Source: Chloroflexota bacterium
GTDB lineage: Bacteria > Chloroflexota > UBA11872 > UBA12225 > JAJDUF01
NCBI GenBank assembly: GCA_965214295.1
Contig: OZ243944.1
Location: forward strand, 75,693 to 139,692
Direction of reading: 5' to 3'
DNA length: 64,000 nt
The translations under genes were made by a program, and so were the position numbers. Positions 6,969-18,399 of the stretch are shown here, in pieces (the first letter of the stretch is position 1; each line of letters begins with the position of its first letter). The notes under the pieces are model-generated. The model did not search any database, was not told the origin of the DNA, and saw only the letters and a program-made list of their open reading frames with translations.

Positions 6969-6994
6969 CGTGCCACCGGAATGAGAGCCATGCT

Positions 6995-7027
6995 CCCTCT
7001 CCCCGTGGGAGAGGGTTGGGGTGAGGG
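6995..7027. repeat. CCCTCTCCC..GGGAGAGGG REP-like palindrome (related copies near 27872, 33045, 37229, 50904)
   Basis: Intergenic hairpin recurring across the window. Confidence 0.75.
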
Positions 7028-7046
7028 CAGCCGGGGATTAGGCTGC

Positions 7047-7997
7047 CTAGCCCGCGAGGCGGCGCAGCGCCGCCAGGTTGGGCGCATCCGGCCCCTTCTT
7101 GTCGAAGCCCGGCACTTCCAGGACGAACGGGAGTCCCCGCAACGCCGGGTGGGCGAGCACCGCTGCAAAATCCGTCTCGCCAATCGTGCCGCAGCCGATG
7201 TTTTCGTGGCGGTCGCGGTTCGTGCCGAACGGCACCTTGGAATCGTTGGCATGCACCAAGCGCAGCCGCGACAGTCCCACCGTCTGCTCGCAGACTGCCA
7301 CCGTCTCTTCGAGCGAGGCGGTCTGTCGCACGACGGTACGGCGCGACTTCTTGGGCGGCGCTGCGTCGGTCGCCGCCGGCGCCCCGGCCGACTGGTGGGC
7401 GCGGGGCGTCAAGCTGTAGCCGGCGGCGTGCATGTGGCACGTGTCGAGGCAGATGCCCACCCGGGGATCGTGATCGAGGCGCTCCAGCAGCCCGGCTAGC
7501 TCCTCGAACGTGCGCCCGAGGGTGGTGCCTTGACCGGCGCACGTCTCCAGCAGCAGCTCGACCGCACCGGCATCGTCTGCGGTCGCATCGAGACACTGAC
7601 GCAGCGCCCCGGCCGCGCGATCCAACGCTTCAGGCACCGATTGACCCTTGGCCGCGCCAGGATGAATCACGATTCCCGATACGCCCAAGCGCGCCGCAAT
7701 GCGGAACTCGTCGGTCAGTGCATTAAGACTGTTCCGGTAGATACGCTCATCGAGGGACGCAAAGTTCATCAAGTAGATGCCGTGGATGAAGGCCGGGCCA
7801 AGCTCGCGCTCCGCACACGCGGCGCGAAACTTGCCCACTGCCGCGTCCTTGTGGTTGGGCGTGCGCCAGCCGGAGGGGCTACGGGCAAAGAGCTGAATTG
7901 GTCCGGCGCGCAGGCCGATCCGGTCGGCATGGGCGCTGGCCTTGTTCACGCCACCATTGAGGTGTGCGCCAATCCGGACATGCTCACGTGCTGCCAT
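7047..7997 (-). CDS. nfo: Endonuclease IV
   Basis: IGAH, QLF.RSP..W, HGIYLMN, HPG, LLET.AGQG, CLDTCH, HANDSK, DRHENIG.G.IG. Confidence 0.93.
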   Translation of the reverse strand: MAAREHVRIGAHLNGGVNKASAHADRIGLRAGPIQLFARSPSGWRTPNHKDAAVGKFRAACAERELGPAFIHGIYLMNFASLDERIYRNSLNALTDEFRIAARLGVSGIVIHPGAAKGQSVPEALDRAAGALRQCLDATADDAGAVELLLETCAGQGTTLGRTFEELAGLLERLDHDPRVGICLDTCHMHAAGYSLTPRAHQSAGAPAATDAAPPKKSRRTVVRQTASLEETVAVCEQTVGLSRLRLVHANDSKVPFGTNRDRHENIGCGTIGETDFAAVLAHPALRGLPFVLEVPGFDKKGPDAPNLAALRRLAG

Positions 7998-8118
7998 CTT
8001 TCGTCATCCCCTCAGTGCGGCGCGGCAGCGGCGCGCTCCCCGCCTGGGCAACGGCGCTGCTCAGTTCCCTAACGGGCAATCGGAGCGCCGGTAGCGGGCG
8101 GACAAGCGCAACGTGATG

Positions 8119-8340
8119 CTACCCGCCGGTAAACAGGTCCAGGACGTTGCCGAGCGTCGAGGTGTCGCCCTTATACAGCTCGGTGTAACCGCAGTCCTGG
8201 CACGATACGGTCATGAATTTCTTGTTCTGCACGTCGAATATCTTGGCCAGATTGCCGCCCGTGGCCCGGAATTCGTCCGTTTCGTAGTCGTTACTGCCGC
8301 ACTTGGCACAGACGTAGGCGGTTTGTCCGGGAGTGCTCAT
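8119..8340 (-). CDS. Zinc-ribbon domain protein (DUF2082-like)
   Basis: C.KCG ... KIFDVQNKKF..VSC..CGYTELY; RBS GGAGG. Confidence 0.85.
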   Translation of the reverse strand: MSTPGQTAYVCAKCGSNDYETDEFRATGGNLAKIFDVQNKKFMTVSCQDCGYTELYKGDTSTLGNVLDLFTGG

Positions 8341-8419
8341 GTGGGTTTATCCTCCTATAGGGAGTCTAGCCGCTAGGAGGCTGGGGACCAAAGCTGGCGG
8401 GAAACGTGCCGCCGGGAGG

Positions 8420-8579
8420 AAAGCAGAAAGCCGCCACCCCGCAGGATGGCGGCGCATCTGGACCCCGCCCCGTAGGACGGCAGTGCATTTGGTGGACTTT
8501 TAACCTTGTTAACGGTTGGTAGTGCCGCTGGAGCGACACATCCCTAACTCCCCGCTCTCCCATCGGCACCACTGCTGCC
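8420..8579 (-). ncRNA. tracrRNA
   Basis: Anti-repeat at 8508-8573 complementary to the repeat, upstream promoter, downstream hairpins and terminator (stem 8430-8453 plus U-rich tail); ends approximate. Confidence 0.82.
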
Positions 8580-8585
8580 GGGCAG

Positions 8586-8614
8586 ACTTTAGCACAGGTC
8601 CACCCTAGCGGCAA
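8586..8614 (-). promoter_or_regulatory. tracrRNA promoter
   Basis: -35 TTGCCG, 17 bp, extended -10 TG-C-TAAAGT. Confidence 0.7.
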
Positions 8615-8736
8615 GCACGGTAGTAGCTGGCAAAAACGGCGCCGCGCCCCCTGTTCCGGGTGTGCCGGAGACAATTTCCCGCCCCAGGAGCAACCACAAC
8701 TACCAGAGAGGAACCTGGCTGCTAGTCCTGCCATCT

Positions 8737-8838
8737 AGTGTAGCCGATGGGAGAACGGGGAGCAACCGCAACTTTGCCGCCGCTCGTGAGTGGGCGATTG
8801 AGAGTGTAGCCGATGGGAGAACGGGGAGCAACCGCAAC
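8737..8838 (-). CRISPR. Type II-C mini-array: two identical 36-bp repeats (R1 8737-8772, R2 8803-8838) and one 30-bp spacer
   Basis: Repeat AGTGTAGCCGATGGGAGAACGGGGAGCAACCGCAAC (crRNA sense GTTGCGG...GCTACACT); spacer TTTGCCGCCGCTCGTGAGTGGGCGATTGAG. Confidence 0.92.
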
Positions 8839-8840
8839 CA

Positions 8841-9113
8841 CTAAAACAGCTTGATCCACGCAGCCGCAGCAGCAACGGCCGCGATCACCACACCGGCCAG
8901 GGCTACACTGGCTAGGATCAGTTTCCACGTCAGCGCATTGATTGCGCGTTCCAGGTCCGCCTTGGTCGCCAGATGCGGCAGGTGTGCTTGCACCGCCGCT
9001 AGGCCAACTTCCAACTGCCCCAGACGGCCTTCTACCTTGTCTAGGCGGTCGTCTACTCGCGTGTGCCAGCCCACGTCCGCGGCCGTTTCCGGTTCCGTCT
9101 CGGTAATCATCAC
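8841..9113 (-). CDS. Coiled-coil protein with C-terminal membrane anchor (DUF1640/CCDC90-like)
   Basis: Heptads, LATKADL motif, hydrophobic C-terminus; stop codon 2 nt from R2. Confidence 0.75.
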   Translation of the reverse strand: MMITETEPETAADVGWHTRVDDRLDKVEGRLGQLEVGLAAVQAHLPHLATKADLERAINALTWKLILASVALAGVVIAAVAAAAAWIKLF

Positions 9114-9128
9114 GCTTCCCTCACGCTA

Positions 9129-9437
9129 CTAGCCAGCCAACCAACGCAGGAACGCCGCCAGTGCCGCGCCCCCGGCTACCAAGATCGCCGTCAGTTTCCA
9201 GGTCAACGCATTGATGGCACGTTCCATGTTCGCGTGGAGTTGTGCCACATCGGCTTTCGTGGCGAGGTGCGGCAGCGTCGAGTCGAAACGCGCCTCCATC
9301 CGATCCAGGCGTGTATTCAAGCGCCCCACGTCAGCGGTCAGGGTATCCAGCCGGTCGTCGACTCGAGCGCGCCAGGCCACCGTCGCCGCATCCGGGTCCG
9401 CCCATGCTGGCGTTGATGCCGCCTCGGTAGCCGTCAT
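9129..9437 (-). CDS. Coiled-coil protein with C-terminal membrane anchor (DUF1640/CCDC90-like)
   Basis: RVDDRLD, LPHLATKADV, ERAINALTWKL shared with the neighbouring ORF; RBS GGGAG. Confidence 0.78.
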   Translation of the reverse strand: MTATEAASTPAWADPDAATVAWRARVDDRLDTLTADVGRLNTRLDRMEARFDSTLPHLATKADVAQLHANMERAINALTWKLTAILVAGGAALAAFLRWLAG

Positions 9438-9543
9438 GCTCCCATACCTCTCTCAGCCGCCACCCGTCACGTCAACCAGGTCAGCACGCGGCGCCCGTAC
9501 CATAGCAAATCAACGCCGCCGGAGAGTCCGGTACCGCCCGGAA

Positions 9544-9577
9544 AGTGTAGCCGACGGGAGCGGGGGGCAACCGGCAT
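9544..9577 (-). repeat. Degenerate CRISPR repeat R3
   Basis: AGTGTAGCCGACGGGAG--CGGGGGGCAACCGGCAT aligns to R1. Confidence 0.8.
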
Positions 9578-9584
9578 AGGTCAG

Positions 9585-9613
9585 TTGCCTCCCAACCCTT
9601 TGCATAGTATGAT
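9585..9613 (+). promoter_or_regulatory. cas operon promoter
   Basis: -35 TTGCCT, 17 bp, -10 TATGAT; RBS AAGGAGGG at 9641-9648. Confidence 0.7.
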
Positions 9614-9653
9614 ACTCCCTCACAGGTTATGCAACCACACAAGGAGGGACTGT

Positions 9654-12600
9654 ATGCGCTACCGTCTGGGGCTTGATCTCGGGACGAACTCCATCGGCTG
9701 GGCCGCCGTCACACTTGACGCGGACGACCAGCCCTGCGGGGTGCTGGACATGGGCGTCCGCGTCTTCCCGGACGGACGTGATCCCCAATCGCAAACCTCG
9801 AACGCAGCGACCCGGCGTGTCGCGCGCGGCCAACGCCGGCGCCGCGACCGCTACCTACAGCGACGGACTGACCTGGTGCAGGCACTCATCGCTTGCGGTC
9901 TCATGCCAGCGGATAAAGACGCGCGCAAGCAGCTGGCCAAGCTCGATCCCTACACGCTCCGCGCTACGGCCCTCGACCAGCCGCTTCAGCCCGATGAGCT
10001 AGGACGTGCGATTTTCCATCTCGACCAGCGGCGCGGCTTCAAGTCCAATCGCAAGGCGAGCGGCGATGACGACAGTGCAGCCAAGCAGATCGGTCCGAAG
10101 ATCGAGGGACTTAGTAAGTCCATTGCGGAGAGCGGCGCGCGCACGCTGGGCGAATTCCTGGCGCGGCAATTGAAGCAAGGCCAAACGGCACGTTTCCGGC
10201 CTGGTGTGGAATTCTACCCGGATCGAGTCATGTATGAGGCCGAGTTTGCGGCGATCCGAGAGGTGCAGGAGTCGCACCAGGCATTGTCTCCGGACCAATG
10301 GAACACTTTGCACGACATCATCTTCTTCCAGCGACCACTGCGACCGGTCGAGCCGGGCTGGTGCCGGTTCGAGCACGGTGAGAAGCGCGCCGCCAAAGCC
10401 TTGCCGGTCTTCCAGGAGTTCCGCATGTTGCTGGAGATCAGCAACATGAAACTCCAGGTTGGCAGCGAGGACCGGCGACTGGATGCCGGCGAGCGGGAAC
10501 GCGCCCTGCAACGGCTGCGCGCTGGCCAGGACATCAACCTGAAGAAGCCGGTAAAGGCGCTGGGCCTGCCGTCGGGTGCGACCTTCAACCTGAGCCGTGG
10601 GGGCCGGACCATAGTCAAGGGTGACGAGGCTACTGCCCGCCTCATAGAGAAGAAAGAGAGGGGGAAGAAAAAGCAAGCGCTGTTCGGCAAACGCTGGCTG
10701 ACGCGCTCCCTCGACGAGCGCAATGAGATCGTGCGGTTTCTGATCAAAACGGAGGACCCGGCGGAAGTCCACCGGAAGGCGATGGCGGATTGGGGGCTGA
10801 CCGACGAGCAGGCCAAAGCCGTCTCGGAAGTTGCACTGCCGAGCGGCTACGGCGACCTGAGTGAAAAGGCCATCGGAAAGCTGCTCTCCCACTTGGAGGC
10901 CGGACTGGGTTATTCGGAAGCCGTCATCGCCGCCGGCTATCCCCATCACTCCGACTTCCGCAACACCGAGGCGCACGCCCGGCTGCCCTACTACGGCGCC
11001 GTGCTCGAACGCGACGCGGTCGGCGCGGACCCCACGAAAGACCCGCAGGTAGACGGCGAGGTAGCCCGCTACGGCCGGTTCCCCAACCCCACCGTCCACA
11101 TCGGCCTGAACCAGCTCCGGCGCGTCGTCAACCGGCTCATCGCCGTCTACGGCAAGCCGGAGGAGATCGTCGTCGAGGTCGGCCGCGACTTGAAGGCGAA
11201 CAAGGAGGACCGCGACCGTTACCGGAAGCAGCAAAGGGAAGGCCGGGAGCGCAACGAGCGGTACAAGGAGCAGCTCGAGTCGGCCGGGGGGGACAATACG
11301 CCCGATATGCGCCTCAAGCTTCGCCTGTGGGAGGAGCAGGGCGAGCCACCAGCCCGCCGCTGCCCGTACACCGGCAAGACACTCTCTTTCGAGATGGTGG
11401 TTTCCGAGCGGACCCAGATAGACCATATCCTGCCGTTTTCCCGGACGTTGCACGATTCACGAGCGAATATGGTCGTCTGCGTCGCCGCCGCCAACCAAGT
11501 CAAAGGCAACCGAGCACCCTACGAGGCCTTCGGTCACAGCCCGCCGGGGTATGACTACGAGGCCATTCTGGCTCGCGCCGCCAAGCTGCCGGGCAACAAG
11601 CGCTGGCGCTTCCAGCCGGACGCGATGGAGCAGTTCGAGGACGAACGTGACTTCCTCGACCGCCAGCTGAACGAGACGCGCTACCTCTCCCGGACTGCCC
11701 GCACTTACCTGGCCTACCTCTACGACGAGCAGACCGAGGGCCGAGTGCGGGTGCGTGCCATCCCCGGTCACATGACCGCGCTGTTGCGGCGCGGCTGGGG
11801 TCTGGAAGGGATACTGCGCGATTCCAAGGACGGTGAACCGTCGCGCAAGCAGCGTGACGACCACCGCCACCACGCTATCGACGCCTTCGTCGTCGCGAAC
11901 ACGACGCAAGGATTGCTCCAGCGGTTCGCCCGCGCCGCCGCGTCCCAGTATGACCGCATAAACAGGCTGGATGCGGTAGCAGGTAAGGCGTCCCCATGGG
12001 CAGGGTTTGACCGCCGCCAACTGCAACCATACCTTGATCGCCTAGTCGTCTCTTATAAGAGAGATCGGGGCACGCGCGGCACCGCCGGCCGGACCACCGG
12101 CCAGCTGCACAACGAGACGGCCTACGGGTTTATCGAGGCACCGACCGGCGATGTCCCGTCCGAAGTCGTGACCCGCAGGGAGCTTGCGACTGGAGCTACC
12201 GGATGGCCCAAGACGCGCAAACACCTGGAGTCCGTGCGGGACGACGCATTGCGGGCAGCACTGCTGGCGCTCTGGGATCGGGTCAAGGCGGAAGGCAAGA
12301 AGCCGGCCGAATTCGTTGAGCGAGCGGCCAATGACGGTGTGCTGCTCAATGGCCAGCGCCAGCGCGTGCGGCGGGTGCGCGTGGTCGAAAACCTGCGCGT
12401 CATACCGATCAAGGACCACGCCGGCAAGCCGTACAAGGGCTATATGCCGGACAGCAATGAGTTCGTCCACGTGTGGCGGATGCGCGACAGAAGCTGGAAG
12501 CTGGTCGTCGTGTCCACGTTCGAGGCCAATCAATCCGGCTTCGATATCGAGGATATCGAGCGGTTCCGCCCCACATCTTCCAGAGGTCCCTACCGGGGAA

Positions 12601-12884
12601 AACCTGACCCCGCCGCCAAGTACCTCATGCGGCTGCACAAGGACGACATGGGCGTGTTGGGCAAGGGGCAGGATCGCCGCATCGTGCATGTGCGTCAGAT
12701 ATGGGCTACCACGGTGGTACTGGATGACCACAATGAAGCCGATGTTGATGCCCGCGAACGCCGGGGCGAAATGGATCGTAGCAAGAGCAGCTATTCGGCG
12801 AAGAAACTCCGGGAGCAGGGTTTCCGCAAGGTGCGTGTGGATGAGATCGGGCGCGTGCGGGACCCGAGGCCGCCGGCGCCATGA
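9654..12884 (+). CDS. cas9: Type II-C Cas9 (1076 aa)
   Basis: RuvC-I LGLDLGTNSIGW, Arg-rich bridge helix, RuvC-II IVVEVGR, HNH IDHILPFS...N..KGNR, RuvC-III HHAIDA; catalytic residues appear intact. Confidence 0.97.
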   Translation: MRYRLGLDLGTNSIGWAAVTLDADDQPCGVLDMGVRVFPDGRDPQSQTSNAATRRVARGQRRRRDRYLQRRTDLVQALIACGLMPADKDARKQLAKLDPYTLRATALDQPLQPDELGRAIFHLDQRRGFKSNRKASGDDDSAAKQIGPKIEGLSKSIAESGARTLGEFLARQLKQGQTARFRPGVEFYPDRVMYEAEFAAIREVQESHQALSPDQWNTLHDIIFFQRPLRPVEPGWCRFEHGEKRAAKALPVFQEFRMLLEISNMKLQVGSEDRRLDAGERERALQRLRAGQDINLKKPVKALGLPSGATFNLSRGGRTIVKGDEATARLIEKKERGKKKQALFGKRWLTRSLDERNEIVRFLIKTEDPAEVHRKAMADWGLTDEQAKAVSEVALPSGYGDLSEKAIGKLLSHLEAGLGYSEAVIAAGYPHHSDFRNTEAHARLPYYGAVLERDAVGADPTKDPQVDGEVARYGRFPNPTVHIGLNQLRRVVNRLIAVYGKPEEIVVEVGRDLKANKEDRDRYRKQQREGRERNERYKEQLESAGGDNTPDMRLKLRLWEEQGEPPARRCPYTGKTLSFEMVVSERTQIDHILPFSRTLHDSRANMVVCVAAANQVKGNRAPYEAFGHSPPGYDYEAILARAAKLPGNKRWRFQPDAMEQFEDERDFLDRQLNETRYLSRTARTYLAYLYDEQTEGRVRVRAIPGHMTALLRRGWGLEGILRDSKDGEPSRKQRDDHRHHAIDAFVVANTTQGLLQRFARAAASQYDRINRLDAVAGKASPWAGFDRRQLQPYLDRLVVSYKRDRGTRGTAGRTTGQLHNETAYGFIEAPTGDVPSEVVTRRELATGATGWPKTRKHLESVRDDALRAALLALWDRVKAEGKKPAEFVERAANDGVLLNGQRQRVRRVRVVENLRVIPIKDHAGKPYKGYMPDSNEFVHVWRMRDRSWKLVVVSTFEANQSGFDIEDIERFRPTSSRGPYRGKPDPAAKYLMRLHKDDMGVLGKGQDRRIVHVRQIWATTVVLDDHNEADVDARERRGEMDRSKSSYSAKKLREQGFRKVRVDEIGRVRDPRPPAP

Positions 12885-13792
12885 TCGGCCGCGTCGTCGA
12901 GGTGGTAAGCGAGGGCCGGCACCTGGCGCGCTCCCACGGCTTCATGACCGTCTCGCAGGACGGGAATGAGGCGGGGCGGGTGCCCCTCGACGACATCGGA
13001 GTGCTGCTCTGCAACGCGCGCGGCCTCACCTACTCGAACAGCCTGCTGACGGAGCTGGCCCGGCGGGGCGTGGCCATGGTCTTGTGCGGGCCGCACTACC
13101 GCCCGGTCGCGTGGCTCTGGCCGCTGGAAGGCCACCACGTCCAGGCGCAACGCATGCGCCGCCAGTTGGAGGCGTCCCGGCCGCTCTGCAAACGGCTCTG
13201 GCAGGCCGTAGTGCGCGCCAAAATCGGTCAGCAGCAACGCTTGCTCACGCTGCTCCAGGCACCCGCCGACGATTTCGCAGTGCTGGCGCGGCGCGTCCGC
13301 TCCGGCGACCCGGACAACGTCGAGGCGCAGGCGGCGCGGCGCTACTGGCCGCGACTCTTCGGGAGCGACTTCCGGCGCAGCCGCTTTGGGGACGGGCCGA
13401 ACCCCTTCCTGAACTACGGCTATACGGTGCTGCGGGCCGCGACGGCGCGCGCCGTGGTATCCGCCGGCCTGCACCCATCCGTAGGCATTCACCACCATAA
13501 CCGCAGCAACGCTCTGTGCCTCGTGGACGACCTGATGGAGCCGTTCCGGCCCCTGGTGGACGCGGTCGTCGTCCGGCTGGTGCGCGCGGAGCACGAGGAG
13601 CTGACTCCGGAGACCAAGCAGCCGCTCGTGGAGGTGTTGACCATGGACATGGCAACGGACCGGGGAACGACGCCCCTCGGGACGTGCCTGGAGCGGGTTG
13701 CCCAGTCCCTTGCCCAAGCGTATGAAACCGGGCAGCCGGCCTTGGTTTTCCCCGGAGGGCCGCTGATGGACTCCATCCCGGCGGAGGGCTGA
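12881..13792 (+). CDS. cas1: CRISPR-associated endonuclease Cas1 (type II)
   Basis: VPLDDIG, EAQAARRYW, LNYGY.VLR, GIHH, DDLMEPFRP; overlaps the cas9 stop. Confidence 0.97.
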   Translation: MIGRVVEVVSEGRHLARSHGFMTVSQDGNEAGRVPLDDIGVLLCNARGLTYSNSLLTELARRGVAMVLCGPHYRPVAWLWPLEGHHVQAQRMRRQLEASRPLCKRLWQAVVRAKIGQQQRLLTLLQAPADDFAVLARRVRSGDPDNVEAQAARRYWPRLFGSDFRRSRFGDGPNPFLNYGYTVLRAATARAVVSAGLHPSVGIHHHNRSNALCLVDDLMEPFRPLVDAVVVRLVRAEHEELTPETKQPLVEVLTMDMATDRGTTPLGTCLERVAQSLAQAYETGQPALVFPGGPLMDSIPAEG

Positions 13793-13802
13793 GAGGTGGC
13801 CC

Positions 13803-14129
13803 GTGCTCAGTGGCTATCGGCTCATGTGGATGATGGTGCTCTTCGACCTCCCGGTGGTCACAAAGGCGGAGCGGCGGGCGGCGACGAAGTTTCGGAAGTT
13901 CCTGCTCGAACAGGGATTCGATAGGTGCCAGCTTTCCGTCTATCTGCGCTTCTGCGCCGGCAAAGAGCAGGCGGCAGTCTACACCCGGCGCGTCCAGGGG
14001 GCGTTGCCACGCGCGGGCAACGTGCAGATCATCTACTTCACCGACAAGCAGTACGAAAACATCGTGAGCTTCGACGGCCCGGTCCGGCGACCGGCGAACA
14101 AGAATCCGCAACAGCTCACGCTGTTCTGA
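13803..14129 (+). CDS. cas2: CRISPR-associated endoribonuclease Cas2
   Basis: MWMMVLFDLPV, FRKFLL..GF...QLSVY, TDKQY, QLTLF; no csn2 or cas4 follows. Confidence 0.96.
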   Translation: MLSGYRLMWMMVLFDLPVVTKAERRAATKFRKFLLEQGFDRCQLSVYLRFCAGKEQAAVYTRRVQGALPRAGNVQIIYFTDKQYENIVSFDGPVRRPANKNPQQLTLF

Positions 14130-14213
14130 GCATGGTCACGCCGTTTTTTGCGGCCGGAGCGCCTGTCGAACCGTCCCTGCTACCAGATAGGACCAGGGAC
14201 ACCCGGCAGGCGC

Positions 14214-14248
14214 AGTTTAGCCGCTGGGAGAGCGGGGGGCACCGCAGC
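14214..14248 (-). repeat. Degenerate CRISPR repeat R4
   Basis: AGTTTAGCCGCTGGGAGAGCGGGGGGCACCGCAGC, 85 bp after cas2. Confidence 0.85.
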
Positions 14249-14257
14249 CAGCGGCCG

Positions 14258-14806
14258 TCAGCCCCACAACCGCAGCAACGCCGCGAGGACGGTGAGCCCA
14301 GCCAGCATCACACCAGCAAGGGTCCACGTCATCAGCCGGAGTTGGCGCTCCATATCAGCCCGCAGCCGCTCCCCGTCAGTCCGTAAGTCTGCAATGTCGG
14401 CCTTGGTAGCCAGGTACGGCAGGGTGGCCTCGAACCGCGCTTCCAGGCGCATCAGACCACCTTCCACGTTTCCCAGGCGTCCCTCTACCCCATCCAGGCG
14501 TTCCTCTACCCCGTTCAGGCGCCCCTCTACCCTGTCTAGCCGCCCCTCTACCCCGTTCAGGCGCCCCTCTACCCCGTCTAGGCGCCCCTCTACCCCGTTC
14601 AGGCGTCCCTCTATCCCGTCTAGGCGCCCCTCTACCCCGTTCAGGCGTCCCTCTACTCCGTTCAGGCGTCCCTCTACTCCGTCCAGACGCCCCTCTACCC
14701 GTTCGGATTGGCCTTCCAGTCGCCCGAGTTGGTTGTGAATTCCAGCCAGCGTCGCGGCGTCAGGTATCAGCGTGTCCGGTGCCAGTGCCGCCGTCTCGGT
14801 AGTCAT
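14258..14806 (-). CDS. Long coiled-coil membrane-anchored protein (DUF1640/CCDC90-like) with heptad expansion
   Basis: Start MTTETA matches the paralogs; 11 RL(D/N)GVEG-type heptads, LPYLATKADI, C-terminal TM. Confidence 0.8.
   Translation of the reverse strand: MTTETAALAPDTLIPDAATLAGIHNQLGRLEGQSERVEGRLDGVEGRLNGVEGRLNGVEGRLDGIEGRLNGVEGRLDGVEGRLNGVEGRLDRVEGRLNGVEERLDGVEGRLGNVEGGLMRLEARFEATLPYLATKADIADLRTDGERLRADMERQLRLMTWTLAGVMLAGLTVLAALLRLWG
14459..14689. repeat. 21-bp tandem repeat, about 11 units
   Basis: Units like CAGGCGCCCCTCTACCCCGTT encoding heptads. Confidence 0.9.
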
Positions 14807-14825
14807 TGCTTTCGCTCTCGCTGCC

Positions 14826-14861
14826 AGTTTAGCCGATAGGAGATCGGGGAACAACCGCAAC
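14826..14861 (-). repeat. Degenerate CRISPR repeat R5
   Basis: AGTTTAGCCGATAGGAGATCGGGGAACAACCGCAAC, 32/36 identical to R1. Confidence 0.92.
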
Positions 14862-14930
14862 CCCCGCCATCCCGACATGGAAAGCGCCTGCGCCTACGCC
14901 AACGTACCGATGTCGTTACGGCATCCAAGA

Positions 14931-15458
14931 TCAAGACGATGTTCGGTTTTGGCGCCATAGGAACCTCTTGAATGTCAGATTCCTGTCAGTACGTCCAACG
15001 TACCAGCCAGTGCCGATGCCGGCAGCCACACCGACGACTGTGTTGAAGAGCACACCGGTTATCAAGCTGTACGTGGTCACATAGTGCAAGAAGTAGATTC
15101 CATATCTATGCAGGAATATGTCGGCCACTATCGCAGCAACGCCGGCGAGCGTACCGGCGAACGTGCCGACGGTGGCGGCGCTGATAACACTGACGAGCCT
15201 GCGGGCGCCGGCAATTGGGCCGACGACCGCTCCGACGATTGGCCCGATAGGAACGCCGACGAGCAGGCCCATCATGCTGCCGGCTACCACGGCGAAGCCG
15301 ACGCCCAGCGATTCATCCGAGGGGGTATCAATGGTTAAGACCAGAATAATATGGTATAACACGGAGCCGGTCACTCCGATTATCACGCCAGCGATTGCAC
15401 CGGCGATGAGGCCGGCGGCTGCTCCGACGATTACGTTGCCGATAACTGACCACTTCAT
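14931..15458 (-). CDS. Gly-rich multi-pass membrane hypothetical protein
   Basis: 175 aa, about 4 hydrophobic segments with GxxxG patterns; fills the R5-R6 interval. Confidence 0.65.
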   Translation of the reverse strand: MKWSVIGNVIVGAAAGLIAGAIAGVIIGVTGSVLYHIILVLTIDTPSDESLGVGFAVVAGSMMGLLVGVPIGPIVGAVVGPIAGARRLVSVISAATVGTFAGTLAGVAAIVADIFLHRYGIYFLHYVTTYSLITGVLFNTVVGVAAGIGTGWYVGRTDRNLTFKRFLWRQNRTSS

Positions 15459-15483
15459 GTCATGACGTTACCGCGCCTAGGGC

Positions 15484-15518
15484 AGTATAGCCGCTGGGAT
15501 ATCGAGAGCAACCGCAGC
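15484..15518 (-). repeat. Degenerate CRISPR repeat R6
   Basis: AGTATAGCCGCTGGGATATCGAGAGCAACCGCAGC. Confidence 0.85.
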
Positions 15519-15549
15519 GACATGATCACGCGCGAATCCTCGCTCCTCG

Positions 15550-15837
15550 CTAGACAGTAATCCGCAGTTGCATCCCCAAGGCACGGGTAATTCGCATCAC
15601 TGTGGCAAAGGTGGGGTTGCCGTTTTCGGACAACGCCTTGTAAAGTCCCTCGCGGGTCATCCCGATTTCACGGGCCAGGCGGCTCATGTTTTGAGCGCGC
15701 GCAATATCGTTCAGGGCAGCGCGAATCAGGCTGCCATCTCCTGGGTCTTCCTCTGCACACGCTTCGAGGTACAGGCATACATCCTCTTTGGTGTGCAGGT
15801 GATCGGTGATATCCCAGCGGGTGAATGTTTCGGACAT
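15550..15837 (-). CDS. Addiction module antidote protein (HTH antitoxin)
   Basis: WD..DHL, ALNDIARA.NMS.LA...GMTREGLYKALS..GNPTF. Confidence 0.92.
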   Translation of the reverse strand: MSETFTRWDITDHLHTKEDVCLYLEACAEEDPGDGSLIRAALNDIARAQNMSRLAREIGMTREGLYKALSENGNPTFATVMRITRALGMQLRITV

Positions 15838-15840
15838 ATC

Positions 15841-16134
15841 TTACCTCCAGTCCAGCACCAATCGTTTGGCGCGTGCGATGTCGCGCTGTTGGCTGTCCTT
15901 GTCACCACCGCAAAGCAGGACAACAATGGTTGTGCCCTTGTGCAGGAAATAGAGACGATAACCCGGTCCGTAATGGACGCGCATCTCGGATATGCCATCG
16001 CCTACGAGCTTGGTGTCACCAAGGTTGCCTAGCGAAGCGTTTCTCAAGCGAGCGTTGATTCGGGCGACCGCACGTCGGTCCCGCAAGCTGCGAATCCAGC
16101 GCTTGAAGGTGGCGCTTTCGACTACATCCACCAT
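15841..16134 (-). CDS. Addiction module killer protein (RelE/ParE-fold toxin)
   Basis: F..W...LRD, GNLGD.K.VG.GISEMRVHYGPGYRLYF, LLCGGDK.SQ.RDI. Confidence 0.93.
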   Translation of the reverse strand: MVDVVESATFKRWIRSLRDRRAVARINARLRNASLGNLGDTKLVGDGISEMRVHYGPGYRLYFLHKGTTIVVLLCGGDKDSQQRDIARAKRLVLDWR

Positions 16135-16140
16135 GCCGAT

Positions 16141-16169
16141 ACTGTAAACTATAGTTCACAATTTGTCAA
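16141..16169 (-). promoter_or_regulatory. TA promoter with operator palindrome; leaderless mRNA likely
   Basis: TTGACA-17-TACAGT, ATG 6 nt downstream; palindrome TGTGAACTATAGTTTACA in the spacer. Confidence 0.8.
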
Positions 16170-16213
16170 AGGTATTTCGGGCAGTTGCTCGTTCCTTCAC
16201 ACCTTCCGCGCCG

Positions 16214-16248
16214 AGCTCAACCGCTGGGATATCGAGAGCAACCGCAAC
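16214..16248 (-). repeat. Degenerate CRISPR repeat R7
   Basis: AGCTCAACCGCTGGGATATCGAGAGCAACCGCAAC; core identical to R6. Confidence 0.82.
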
Positions 16249-16273
16249 GACTATGGCTTGTAGCCGGTCCTGG

Positions 16274-16921
16274 TCACTGGTCATGGCTGGTGGCCACGAT
16301 GATCTCGCTCGGCACGCCCCATTGAACCACAACCTCGCGCCTGGCCAAGCGGAATCCGGCCTGCCGCACCAGGCCGGTCAGTTGCAAGGGGCGGCAGCCG
16401 CCACAGCCCTCCGGACTGATGGTGTAGAGCAGCTTCCAGAGCGCGATCAAGGCCCGGCTGGAACGGGTTACTCCTTCGGTGAGCGTGACCAAAACGAGGC
16501 GACCGCCCGGCACGAGCACGCGCCGGAAGTCGTGCAGGAGGGCCGGTAGGTCCGGTGCCGGCAGCAGATCAAGCACGTAGGCGGCGAATAGACAGTCAAA
16601 GCTGGCGCTGGCATAGGGCAACCGACGCGCATCGCCCAGACACACCGGAGTCCCGGTGCGGGTACGGGTGAGGCGGAGCATTACCGGCGAAACGTCGAGG
16701 CCGATGGCAATCCCGTCGGGCGCGACGGCCGCCGCGATGGGGGCGTGCTCTTTGCCGGTACCCACGCCGACGTTCAGCACGCGACAGCCGGGCGTCGGGG
16801 CTAACACGGCCAAGGCGCGAGTTTTGGCACGGCCCTCGAAGCGCCCGGCCCAATCCTGATACGCGCCCAAGCGATCATAGTAGCGCCGGGCCGCCTCACG
16901 CGAGATGGTGTCCTGGATCAT
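16274..16921 (-). CDS. Class I SAM-dependent methyltransferase (UbiE-like)
   Basis: VLNVGVGTG, GLDVSP.ML, GDARRLPY...SFD, RVLVPGGRL. Confidence 0.88.
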   Translation of the reverse strand: MIQDTISREAARRYYDRLGAYQDWAGRFEGRAKTRALAVLAPTPGCRVLNVGVGTGKEHAPIAAAVAPDGIAIGLDVSPVMLRLTRTRTGTPVCLGDARRLPYASASFDCLFAAYVLDLLPAPDLPALLHDFRRVLVPGGRLVLVTLTEGVTRSSRALIALWKLLYTISPEGCGGCRPLQLTGLVRQAGFRLARREVVVQWGVPSEIIVATSHDQ

Positions 16922-16968
16922 CGCTCTCCACTCGGAAGCCGGTCGGCCAGTGTACACGTATACCGCGA

Positions 16969-17457
16969 TCAGCGGAAGCGGCGCTTGAGGATGCGGACCA
17001 CCGCTTTGTGCTCGTTGGCCGGAATGTGCAGCGTGTGCGGTCGGTTACCCTTGCGCGGCGTCAAGACGATCCGGTTGCCACGGGTATCGAAGCGGCGGAA
17101 CTCGCGCCAGAGGCGCGGTGCAGTGTTATTGATCGCCACCCCACGGTCGGTCAGAATATAGCGCATGGGCAAGGCGAGCACGAGGAGCGCACCGGCGAGG
17201 GCGATATACTCGGTACCGGGCAGGTAGTAGCCTTGGCCGAGGACATAGCGCTCGATCTGTCCCAAGGCGACATACGCGGTCAGCAGCAGCAGCAGTCCCC
17301 GCAGCACCAGGAGACGGCGCAACGGGGACAGCCGGGTTTCGTAGAGGATGCTGCCGGACCGACGAGAACCGAAAGGGAACCAGACGCGGAGCAGCATTAA
17401 TGAGAGCAGGAGGCTGACAAAGCTACTACCGAGCAGTTCGAGCCAGTTGTCGGGCAT
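16969..17457 (-). CDS. Membrane hypothetical protein (PH-like C-terminus)
   Basis: 3' part of the long ORF from MPDNWLE; three TM segments then Y.LTDRGV.IN. Confidence 0.7.
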   Translation of the reverse strand: MPDNWLELLGSSFVSLLLSLMLLRVWFPFGSRRSGSILYETRLSPLRRLLVLRGLLLLLTAYVALGQIERYVLGQGYYLPGTEYIALAGALLVLALPMRYILTDRGVAINNTAPRLWREFRRFDTRGNRIVLTPRKGNRPHTLHIPANEHKAVVRILKRRFR

Positions 17458-17646
17458 GCGGGTTGCTCCCGTGGCTGGTGCTCGGATGCTAACACACGAC
17501 GACCGGGGCGACAATGGCCGGCAACCGACGCTCGTCCGCTGCCGGGCACAGGGCGGTGGGGGACGGAGTGCAGCGTAGCCGGTGATATACTCATACGGAG
17601 ACGCCGGGCGTGGAGTGCCGGGGTTGGCAGCGGGGAGGAATCGGGT

Positions 17647-18399
17647 ATGGCTGGTCATTCCAAATGGGCACAGATCAAACGTCAGAAGGCCGGCAACGAC
17701 GCCAAGCGCGGCCAGCTGTTCACCAAACTGGGCCGGGAGATCGAGATCGCCGCGCGCGGGGGTGGTGGTGATCCCGCGACGAACGTCCGGCTGCGTTTTG
17801 CCATCCAGCGTGCCCGGAGCTTCAATATGCCGGCCGATAATATCGAGCGGGCCACCAAGCGCGGTATTGGCGAGACCGACGACGCCGTGCAGTATAACGA
17901 GATCACTTACGAAGGGTATGCCCCTGGGGGCGCGGCCCTCTATATCGAGGTCGTGACCGACAACCGCAACCGGGCAGTGGCCGAAGTGCGGAGTGTGCTG
18001 ACCCGCGCCGGTGGGAGCCTCGGTGAGTCCGGGTGCGTGGCGTGGAATTTCGACCAGCGCGGGGTCCTGATCGGGTCGCTGACCCCGGAGCAGGATGCCG
18101 ACGAGCTGTCGCTGGCGGCAATTGACGCCGGTGCCCTCGACATCATGCAGGACAACGGCACGCTGGAGGTCCACACCGCGCCGACGGACCTGGAGGCCGG
18201 TAAGCAAGCGTTGGAGGCCGAGGGGTTAGCGGTGACCGAGGCCGAGGTGACCTTCATTCCCAAGAGCACGGTCAAGCTGGAGTCGCGGCAGACCGAGCGG
18301 GTAATGCGGCTGATCGAGCAGCTCGAAGAGTTCGATGACGTGCAGCGGATCCACACCAACCTCGACATTGCCGAAGCCCCGGTTACCGCAGCGGCCTAG
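17647..18399 (+). CDS. yebC: YebC/PmpR family protein
   Basis: [29 protein letters not shown]. Confidence 0.96.

Follow-up and report, generated by a model that had tools for sequence, protein, structure and literature searches.

A type II-C CRISPR locus of a Chloroflexota genus in which repeats alternate with whole genes

The repeats of CRISPR loci are usually viewed as the punctuation between 30-bp immune memories. A 64,000-nt stretch of contig OZ243944.1 from a Chloroflexota bacterium, hereafter called the window, contains a type II-C CRISPR-Cas locus that does not conform to this view. The core of the locus measures ~7.9 kb and runs from a first repeat copy (R0) that starts at 8363 to a last one (R7) that ends at 16249 (window positions are used throughout; the genome itself, G000, counts 4,229,907 bases). 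Within this core, and at the corresponding place in eight congeners, the same repeats punctuate whole genes, survive the loss of the cas genes and mark the breakpoints at which modules were reshuffled. Judging from the sequence, we give roughly even odds (a probability of around 0.5) to the reading that the repeats have been reused, both as promoters for the genes downstream of them and as joints for general recombination, in a locus that is decaying but still intact.

Comparison with described systems

In type II-C systems a promoter is part of every repeat and the last repeat is where new spacers are added, according to the accessible part of PMC12080349. The locus agrees with a canonical system of this type in having a predicted trans-activating CRISPR RNA (tracrRNA), cas9, cas1 and cas2 and a 36-bp repeat that ends in a -10-like box when read in the sense of the CRISPR RNA (crRNA). 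As far as the layout is described in the same part of that source, it also agrees in the position of the crRNA strand, which is opposite to the cas genes, and in a leader-like element at the transcriptionally last repeat. It differs in its intervals, as a spacer of ~30 bp occupies one of the five (R1-R2) whereas the other four measure 576-705 bp and hold genes. Arrays are furthermore found both upstream of cas9 and downstream of cas2, and the anti-repeat of the predicted tracrRNA is split by a 29-nt hairpin.

With CreTA and with standalone repeat-like elements, as described in the available part of a preprint by Shmakov et al. (10.1101/2023.03.03.530964), the locus has in common that degenerate repeats occur outside a regular array, are conserved in related loci and lie, within a CRISPR-cas locus, beside cargo that includes toxin-antitoxin genes. 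According to the same part, around 6% of the type II loci possess mini-arrays other than the tracrRNA, and the known mini-arrays, mostly of types I and V-A, consist of a pair of repeats that enclose a segment of spacer size, partly complementary to a promoter, and act via the effector complex. Here, in contrast, single repeats alternate with whole genes and persist without Cas9. The sole spacer-sized interval in the locus that could be compared to a CreA-type mini-array, R1-R2, has no second genomic match longer than 21 nt, a cut-off in match length that excludes short seeds. The supplementary tables of the preprint may list comparable type II loci.

Integrons come to mind because they too consist of co-oriented, tightly packed and mostly small genes, toxin-antitoxin modules among them, with a recurring short site at one chromosomal locus, and because their cassette content and order vary between related species at a fixed locus, as seen here in all nine genomes of the genus. 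Unlike in integrons, no IntI tyrosine recombinase is present among the open reading frames (ORFs) of the locus or the 10 ORFs flanking it, the recurring site is a CRISPR repeat instead of an attC hairpin, and there would be a putative promoter at every site in place of one Pc promoter at the head of the array. Orphan and degenerate arrays are similar in that direct repeats recombine and remove the DNA between them, and in that genomes without cas genes keep relic repeats; here, however, the relics alternate with genes and sit at gene starts, and modules have been reordered and not only deleted. Finally, single copies of a host repeat outside arrays are known as solitary repeat units or RNA anti-CRISPRs, with which a copy on a viral contig (L044, see below) may be grouped. 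In the accessible parts of PMC10651486 and PMC8616872 such units sit on mobile elements, with the inhibition of Cas proteins as their proposed role, whereas the copies in the window are chromosomal, have a housekeeping neighbourhood and are co-linear with resident genes. An earlier note on this DNA knew of no described system like it, and our literature search, which did not extend to most subscription journals or to supplements, likewise turned up neither a case of genes lying between CRISPR repeats nor one of repeats driving protein-coding genes.

Repeats and genes at one chromosomal slot

The seven co-oriented repeat copies reported in the earlier note were all recovered, at plus-strand positions 8737 (R1), 8803 (R2), 9544 (R3), 14214 (R4), 14826 (R5), 15484 (R6) and 16214 (R7), and an eighth, degenerate copy in the same orientation was added (R0, 8363-8398, genome-wide E 3.2e-4). 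R1 and R2, two 36-mers without any difference between them, enclose a 30-bp spacer and form array 1 (8737-8838; R1 8737-8772, spacer 8773-8802, R2 8803-8838), while R0 and R3 to R7 are degenerate. Read on the minus strand the repeat begins with GTTGCGG and ends with CTACACT, which is the usual polarity in type II systems, and the crRNAs thus come from the minus strand. On that strand R3 (9544-9579) is the degenerate terminal repeat of array 1 and adjoins the putative promoter of cas9, R4 (14214-14249) is the leader-side repeat of a second array, R5 (14826-14861) has four mismatches to R1, and R6 (15484-15519) is followed by R7 (16214-16249), the last degenerate repeat, which adjoins a conserved methyltransferase gene (16274-16957).

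The genome-wide search for the repeat that had been proposed in the earlier note made clear that the family is specific to the locus. With up to 10 substitutions allowed, the whole genome contained four matching sites, every one of them in the locus. A profile made from the eight copies yielded nine matches with E<0.01, of which eight lie within the 7.9 kb of the locus and one at position 2911044 of the genome. Given that eight of nine matches are confined in this way, the copies are neither chance matches nor part of a dispersed genomic repeat, and the latter reading was ruled out.

As the earlier note had observed, only R1-R2 encloses a spacer of normal size and complete genes, all on the minus (crRNA) strand, fill the four other intervals. 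Its lengths of 705 bp for R2-R3 and 622 bp for R5-R6 stood; R4-R5 was found to be 576 instead of 577 bp and R6-R7 694-695 bp, against the 695 bp given. The same holds for the distance from stop codon to downstream repeat, which was 2 nt (A) and 69 nt (D) as described, but 8 instead of 9 nt for C and 30 instead of 31 nt for the HigA interval. R2-R3 contains one operon (8841-9437) with ORF B (9129-9437, 102 amino acids) upstream of ORF A (8841-9113, 90 amino acids), R4-R5 contains ORF C (14258-14806, 182 amino acids), R5-R6 contains ORF D (14931-15458, 175 amino acids) and R6-R7 a toxin-antitoxin module (15550-16169) with a HigA-like antitoxin (15550-15837), a HigB-like, Gp49-like toxin (15841-16134) and a promoter (16141-16169). 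R0 in turn precedes a Zn-ribbon gene (8119-8340), which is the first of the modules with a repeat in front of it. C most probably begins with the ATG at 14806 (MTTET...) and not with the ORF start at 14878, which reads through R5, because the orthologue in the congener G008 conserves only the part from MTTET onward. D, a glycine-rich, multi-pass membrane protein without a family assignment, has no match in Pfam, PHROG, NCBIfam or PADLOC. Three homologues were recovered among 5.8 billion proteins and none in a collection of species-representative genomes; being present in one of the nine genus genomes, D is species-specific within this comparison.

Misassembly was ruled out as a cause of this arrangement, as contigs of independent short-read runs from studies P1, P2 and P3 bridge the gene-repeat junctions with 0 differences. 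In study P1, from which the genome itself may stem, the runs X2 and X3 cover 8809-14602 and 14626-16400, X5 (P2) covers 8809-9636, 13808-14332 and 14860-15671, and X6 (P3) covers 14800-15027 and 15493-15752. Contig breaks were limited to the identical R1/R2 pair and to a 21-nt tandem repeat within gene C.

The comparison of related species that the earlier note had called for comprised nine genomes (G000 to G008), one per species. Synteny of the slot between nfo (endonuclease IV, 7047-7997) and the methyltransferase gene extends to all eight congeners. Repeat copies are present in it in 9/9 genomes, in the same orientation and among minus-strand genes, and in the eight other species these genes form sets that overlap without being identical and are arranged in other orders. 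The interleaved genes include those for the Zn-ribbon protein, HigBA, HicAB, a nucleoside transporter (NupC) and small membrane proteins. Going from nfo to the methyltransferase gene, the slot of G007 holds the tracrRNA, cas9-cas1-cas2 and four repeats with intervals of 12, 13 and 27 nt. That of G003, where nfo is not flanking, holds a 19-repeat array (18 full copies and a degenerate terminal one), the cas genes and a NupC-type transporter. In G008, the other congener with cas genes, the order is C between two degenerate or partial repeats, a truncated Zn-ribbon gene, a further such repeat, HicB, the tracrRNA, four repeats, an A/B-like gene, two more degenerate or partial repeats, the cas genes, another one, HigA, another one, NupC and a further gene of the A/B/C family. 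The remaining five lack cas9 and the cas operon in the slot, and all five retain relics of the repeats. G002 shows a degenerate or partial repeat, a gene for a 180-aa protein, two repeats around a spacer, NupC and a repeat; G001 shows HicBA, a repeat, the Zn-ribbon gene, a repeat, a gene for a 343-aa membrane protein, NupC and half a repeat. In G005 the Zn-ribbon gene, a repeat, a degenerate or partial repeat, HicBA, another degenerate or partial repeat, a repeat, the gene for the 343-aa protein and NupC follow each other, in G004 the Zn-ribbon gene, a repeat, a partial HigA gene, a repeat, NupC and half a repeat, and in G006 the Zn-ribbon gene, a repeat, a degenerate or partial repeat, HigA, a partial HigB gene and NupC. 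NupC is missing from G000.

The breakpoints of this mosaic fall at repeats. The HicAB block and the block of the Zn-ribbon gene with R0 have changed places between G001 and G005, the ends of the blocks lie at repeats, and one repeat of G001 aligns to two of G005. Module C adjoins cas2 in G000 and nfo in G008; the two orthologues are 68% identical, and the nucleotide homology (~80%) extends into parts of both flanking repeats. Many junctions carry partial or hybrid repeats. On a tree of 4.36 kb of flanking sequence, species with and without cas genes are intermingled (G002 is placed beside G007 with a support of 0.986, G005 beside G003 and G008 with 0.879), which requires at least three events of gain or loss. 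Repeated loss of the cas genes is the simpler reading, since all five species without them keep relics of the repeats. The notion of the earlier note that repeats form the boundaries of cassettes is thus borne out in so far as there is a repeat-delimited array of modules with its breakpoints at repeats. What that note had named as evidence against its view, namely a misassembly, the same gene order without repeats in relatives, or repeats scattered over the genome, was in no case found.

The cas genes, which had looked intact in the earlier note, are full length and lie on the plus strand between R3 and R4: cas9 at 9654-12884, directly followed by cas1 (12881-13792) and cas2 (13803-14129), with R4 beginning 84 nt past cas2. 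Cas9 matches TIGR01865 (E 5.3e-178) with residues 3-1066 on model positions 1-1069 of 1070, in line with a RuvC/HNH effector, Cas1 matches TIGR03639 (NMENI type, E 2.8e-74) and Cas2 matches PF09827 (E 8.4e-16). Neither csn2 nor cas4 was noticed in the operon, for which no model search aimed at these two genes was made. A promoter-like site for cas9 (TTGCCT-17-TATGAT) is found at 9585-9613. The predicted tracrRNA (8420-8570, minus strand) has a two-part anti-repeat (8548-8567 and 8508-8518) and a terminator hairpin (8430-8453) followed by a T-tract. The duplex of its anti-repeat with R1/R2 reached -59.1 kcal/mol, against -31.6 +/- 3.7 kcal/mol for 200 shuffles; R4 (-51.6), R5 (-47.8) and R3 (-45.3) also paired well beyond their shuffles (about -28 to -35), and R0, R6 and R7 paired no better than shuffles. 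Stretches homologous to the tracrRNA are present in G007 and G008. The 29-nt insert that splits the anti-repeat, and which is able to form a 7-bp hairpin, is common to G007, and the anti-repeat of G008 is contiguous. An Rfam scan of 7000-18000 (E<=1) returned no match, so the predicted tracrRNA belongs to no curated family.

R1 and R4 are each followed, in the crRNA sense, by a leader-like sequence. That of array 1 (8700-8736, minus strand) contains the motif CCTnnCTGGTA (crRNA sense) ~35 nt from R1, and that of array 2 together with R4 spans 14180-14249 on the same strand. The motif occurs after the leader-side repeat in all five arrays of the four genus genomes with cas genes, and 13792-14246 aligns at 88.9% to G007, where a mini-array of four repeats comes directly after. 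Considering the layout given in the accessible part of PMC12080349, two arrays of the locus would be competent for acquisition, one (R1-R3) upstream of cas9 and the other (R4-R7) downstream of cas2. Its cas genes and its predicted tracrRNA identify the locus as an intact type II-C system with two leader-adjacent arrays of an atypical kind.

Putative promoters and recombination joints

The earlier note had missed three things that bear on the role of the repeats, namely that type II-C repeats have their own promoter, that genes lie just downstream of them and that relatives without cas genes keep them. The -10 box of the repeat, which starts each crRNA in a normal array, would drive the complete gene on the crRNA strand downstream of it, and the repeats would act as portable promoters for the interleaved genes. 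A -10-like hexamer at this end is conserved in the lineage, being present in the window, in congeners and in outgroups. Repeats of Neisseria and Campylobacter have reportedly been shown to be promoters by Dugar et al. In the window, the distance between the -10-like end of the repeat and the start codon is 19 nt for C (TAAACT in R5), 22 nt for the Zn-ribbon gene (TAGACT in R0, with AGGAGG in between), 25 nt for D (TATACT in R6), 79 nt for HigB and 106 nt for B. Zn-ribbon orthologues with the same repeat copy upstream are found in G001, G004, G005 and G006, and in the five genomes, G000 included, the -10 end and the AGGAGG of this copy have been kept while the rest of the repeat has drifted. 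Repeats are also found directly upstream of NupC (G001, G002 and G004) and of the gene for the 180-aa protein (G002), and many of the degenerate copies in genomes without cas genes consist of the promoter-side half alone (profile positions 1-20 to 1-29). Of the 23 solitary copies in the genus, 15 keep the TA...T of the -10 end. Moreover, the nine distinct transcription units, five in the window and four in congeners (HicAB, the 343-aa membrane protein, NupC and the 180-aa protein), are without exception co-oriented with the crRNA strand, and genes farther out from the locus occur on both strands.

As direct repeats of 36 bp, the copies would at the same time be substrates of the general homologous recombination of the host. 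Unequal crossing-over, or excision followed by re-entry at another repeat, would duplicate, delete and reorder the modules bounded by them, and the cas9-cas1-cas2 block between R3 and R4 would itself be one of the modules that are shuffled. Over the history of the genus this would lead to a mosaic of modules at one chromosomal slot, which may outlive the cas genes because the promoter-bearing halves of the repeats remain useful. The partial and hybrid repeats, the movement of C together with parts of its repeats and the shuffling in species without cas genes fit general recombination better than the precise chemistry of an integrase. No integrase or transposase was found among the 10 flanking ORFs that were scanned, and the surroundings consist of housekeeping genes (PlsY-like, aminotransferase, nfo, RuvB and QueA). 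We infer, then, both the promoter activity of the repeats and recombination, rather than an integrase, as the engine.

Several observations weigh against this reading. A consensus promoter scan does not call the repeat, in which neither a recognisable -35 box nor a TG extension is present, and the TA...T of the -10 end has been lost from the other 8 of the 23 solitary copies, in a weak count that is blurred by indels of 1-2 nt in several copies. HigBA has a strong sigma-70-like promoter of its own (TTGACA-17-TACAGT, score 10/12) and B lies as far as 106 nt from R3, so not every module needs a repeat. As the minus strand also carries nfo and the methyltransferase gene on the flanks, the co-orientation may partly reflect a strand bias of the region. 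Crossing-over at repeats that are already in place accounts for shuffling and loss, but not for the first capture of a gene, such as that of D between R5 and R6. Some junctions, like that in G006 where R0 is followed by a 5'-truncated repeat, are juxtapositions and not clean crossovers within a repeat, and the comparison of one genome per species showed no rearrangement under way.

Should the promoter role prove correct, the locus would be a clear natural case of CRISPR repeats acting as portable promoters for protein-coding genes, and would illustrate a route from a decaying immune locus to a small variable gene island. It also constitutes a system in which one can test whether adaptation enzymes or simple repeat recombination are able to move gene-sized DNA, how a cas operon is lost while its repeats remain, and what becomes of mRNAs that end in a crRNA repeat in the presence of tracrRNA and Cas9. 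For annotation it holds a warning, as array finders that demand spacer-sized intervals miss loci of this kind.

The explanation that survives best beside the reuse of the repeats, and which we nevertheless consider unlikely, is neutral decay. The locus would be old, with an array to either side of the cas genes, and eroding, genes would have come to lie between the leftover repeats by unrelated illegitimate insertions and deletions, and the repeats would by now be functionless. The degenerate repeats, the irregular spacers of G007 (12, 13 and 27 nt) and the multiple losses of the cas operon are what one would expect in that case. Arrays on both sides of the cas genes and an ORF-bearing gap of 1.37 kb in an array are found in distant loci (L016 and L025, see below), and insertions at the old end of arrays occur elsewhere. 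Mere erosion does not readily account for the relics upstream of the Zn-ribbon gene and NupC, in which the -10 end and the ribosome-binding site have been kept across species without cas genes while the remainder drifted, nor for the co-orientation of all nine transcription units or the coincidence of between-species breakpoints with repeats.

It is rather improbable that the modules are remnants of mobile elements, in the sense that a phage or plasmid with a solitary copy of the host repeat entered the array by a single crossover and that later deletions left behind addictive or harmless cargo. Solitary repeat units of viruses have been described (accessible parts of PMC8616872 and PMC10651486). 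On the 20.7-kb viral contig L044 a full-length solitary copy of this repeat family (9660-9693, E 9e-7) separates a minor-head-like gene from the structural gene that follows. It is the sole full-length one among four exact 17-mer matches in the viral collection and a candidate solitary repeat unit. The cargo is of a typical kind as well (HigBA, HicAB, XhlA-like or holin-like small membrane proteins and the orphan D), and the GC content at third codon positions of the module genes (0.66-0.75) is lower than that of the cas and flanking genes (0.79-0.89). Opposed to this, remnants of phages, plasmids, integrases or transposases are absent from the locus and its borders (10 flanking ORFs scanned), and the tight fit of one gene or operon per interval would have needed repeated, near-perfect trimming. 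In addition, A, B and C belong to a resident multi-copy family, with 5-27 matches in each of the nine genus genomes and copies outside the locus in G000 that have no flanking repeats, and NupC and the Zn-ribbon gene are unlike mobile cargo.

A Cas9-dependent regulation of the cargo we regard as still more doubtful. The transcripts of A, C and D would run into R2, R4 and R5 and pair with the tracrRNA, leading to cleavage by RNase III or binding of Cas9, by which the CRISPR machinery would govern how stable the cargo is or how it is expressed; alternatively, the degenerate repeats would yield crRNA-like regulators as in the known mini-arrays. The pairing of R3, R4 and R5 with the anti-repeat is in line with this, as is the lack of a terminator-like site in the 2-8 nt that separate A and C, at their stop codons, from the next repeat. 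Standalone repeat-like elements that regulate cas and cargo genes, toxin-antitoxin genes included, have moreover been described (10.1101/2023.03.03.530964, available part). Nevertheless, R0, R6 and R7 pair no better than their shuffles, and there is no evident target in trans, as neither the R1-R2 spacer nor the 30-nt stretches beside every repeat had a second match longer than 21 nt in the whole genome. The arrangement has been kept in five species that lack Cas9, which means that the link cannot be essential.

Capture by the adaptation machinery seems very unlikely to us. Gene-length DNA would occasionally have been integrated by Cas1-Cas2 at the leader-side repeat, with duplication of that repeat, the promoter of which would express the captured gene; perhaps two adaptation complexes, one per DNA end, would do so in a casposase-like manner. 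Casposase relatives of Cas1-Cas2 integrate kilobase elements. In two arrays that keep a leader-like motif, genes take the place of spacers between repeats of full length, with intact cas1 and cas2 adjacent and no other recombinase nearby (10 flanking ORFs scanned). The species-specific D lies exactly between R5 and R6, R6 and R7 around HigBA have derived substitutions in common (31 nt, 97% identical), as a duplicated repeat would have, and the order in array 2, with HigBA (orthologous remnants of which are present in G004, G006 and G008) distal, D next and C leader-proximal, fits entry at the leader side. Direct support is absent, however, for the possibility raised in the earlier note that Cas1-Cas2 insert pieces of 0.5-0.7 kb. 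Cas1-Cas2 measures prespacers of ~30 bp by a molecular ruler, and we know of no record of the integration of 0.6-kb DNA by it in vivo. Furthermore, R4 and R5, which flank C, differ at ~10 positions, and C has parts of both repeats in common with its orthologue elsewhere in G008, so that gene and repeats moved together. Partial and hybrid repeats are found at many junctions, and modules were reordered among species without cas genes, though possibly before the loss of those genes. It is just as improbable that the arrays are a working platform for gene capture, an analogue of the integron made of CRISPR parts in which pairing with the tracrRNA at the downstream repeat would define the 3' end of the transcript.

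Related arrays and further features of the locus

A search for Cas9 in 41 related genomes gave five in which it is present, the genome under study included. In one of them (G035, Cas9 67% identical) a regular array lies downstream of cas2, and its repeat ends in TAAACT like the copies of the genus. Seven loci in metagenome-assembled genomes (MAGs) of Dehalococcoidia (Cas9 47-67% identical) have cas9-cas1-cas2 followed by 12-49 repeat matches each, with a period of ~66 bp, and all seven have an inverted repeat-like match ~100 nt upstream of cas9. In the crRNA sense the repeats of these MAG loci end in TACAAT or TATAAT and those of the genus in TAnACT. As regular arrays of the same family are present in these eight outgroup loci, the repeats in the window are ordinary CRISPR repeats, for which spacers and not genes are the canonical content.

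Farther away, a type II-C locus of a Bdellovibrionales MAG (L025, Cas9 31% identical) has, at 15309-16709, 11 regular repeats, a gap of 1.37 kb and a solitary terminal repeat. The gap holds small ORFs, one of which (121 amino acids) is on the crRNA strand, and an ORF for a membrane/coiled-coil protein of 108 amino acids ends 18 nt beyond the terminal repeat. Judged by this gap, the occurrence of genes between repeats may be wider than the genus. In the type II-C locus of Eilatimonas milleporae (L016, 8095-15679) arrays of one and the same repeat lie on both sides of cas9-cas1-cas2, which means that direct repeats border a cas operon outside this genus as well.

Some contigs of X2 and X3 contain an R1-type repeat (8741-8773) in other flanking sequence, and one low-depth contig has two R5-type repeats (14830-14861) around a 33-nt spacer; related arrays with normal spacers thus exist in the same samples. 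In the mini-array of G007 (L006, 12667-12862) one interval contains a piece of a repeat, and the whole looks like a collapsed array. The orphan repeat-like sequence elsewhere in the genome (G000:C1:2911044-2911071, genome-wide E 0.0012) is located ~33 nt upstream of the start of an ORF on the same strand. It lies far from all cas genes and does not retain the -10 end. A second cas1 gene (G000:C1:2133329-2133919, 98.8 bits summed) points to another CRISPR-Cas system, with repeats of a different family.

With regard to the modules themselves, A and B are paralogous and have an N-terminal coiled coil and a C-terminal transmembrane helix, for which Pfam gave weak matches to DUF7310 alone; a homologous gene is found at the same position, between array and cas9, in G008. 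C, of the same family, also has a C-terminal transmembrane helix (DUF7310, E 1.8e-13) and contains 11 tandem units of 21 nt (14432-14742) that encode the heptad VEGRL[D/N]G, a run that is shorter and diverged in the orthologue of G008. The PADLOC, PHROG and NCBIfam matches of C were discarded, as they are located on these coiled-coil repeats, and a function for A, B, D and the Zn-ribbon protein was likewise not obtained from the three collections. The Zn-ribbon protein matches DUF2082 / Zn_ribbon_13 (PF09855, E 4.8e-31), and the HigBA module matches PF21716 (E 1.5e-23) and PF05973 (E 1.9e-5). At the nfo end of the slot, finally, an element of ~45 nt (about 6988-7042) lies between a small ORF and nfo. 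It is found at dozens of sites per genome (80-100% identity) in five congeners and looks like a dispersed repeat of the genus, similar to repetitive extragenic palindromic (REP) sequences or miniature inverted-repeat transposable elements (MITEs).

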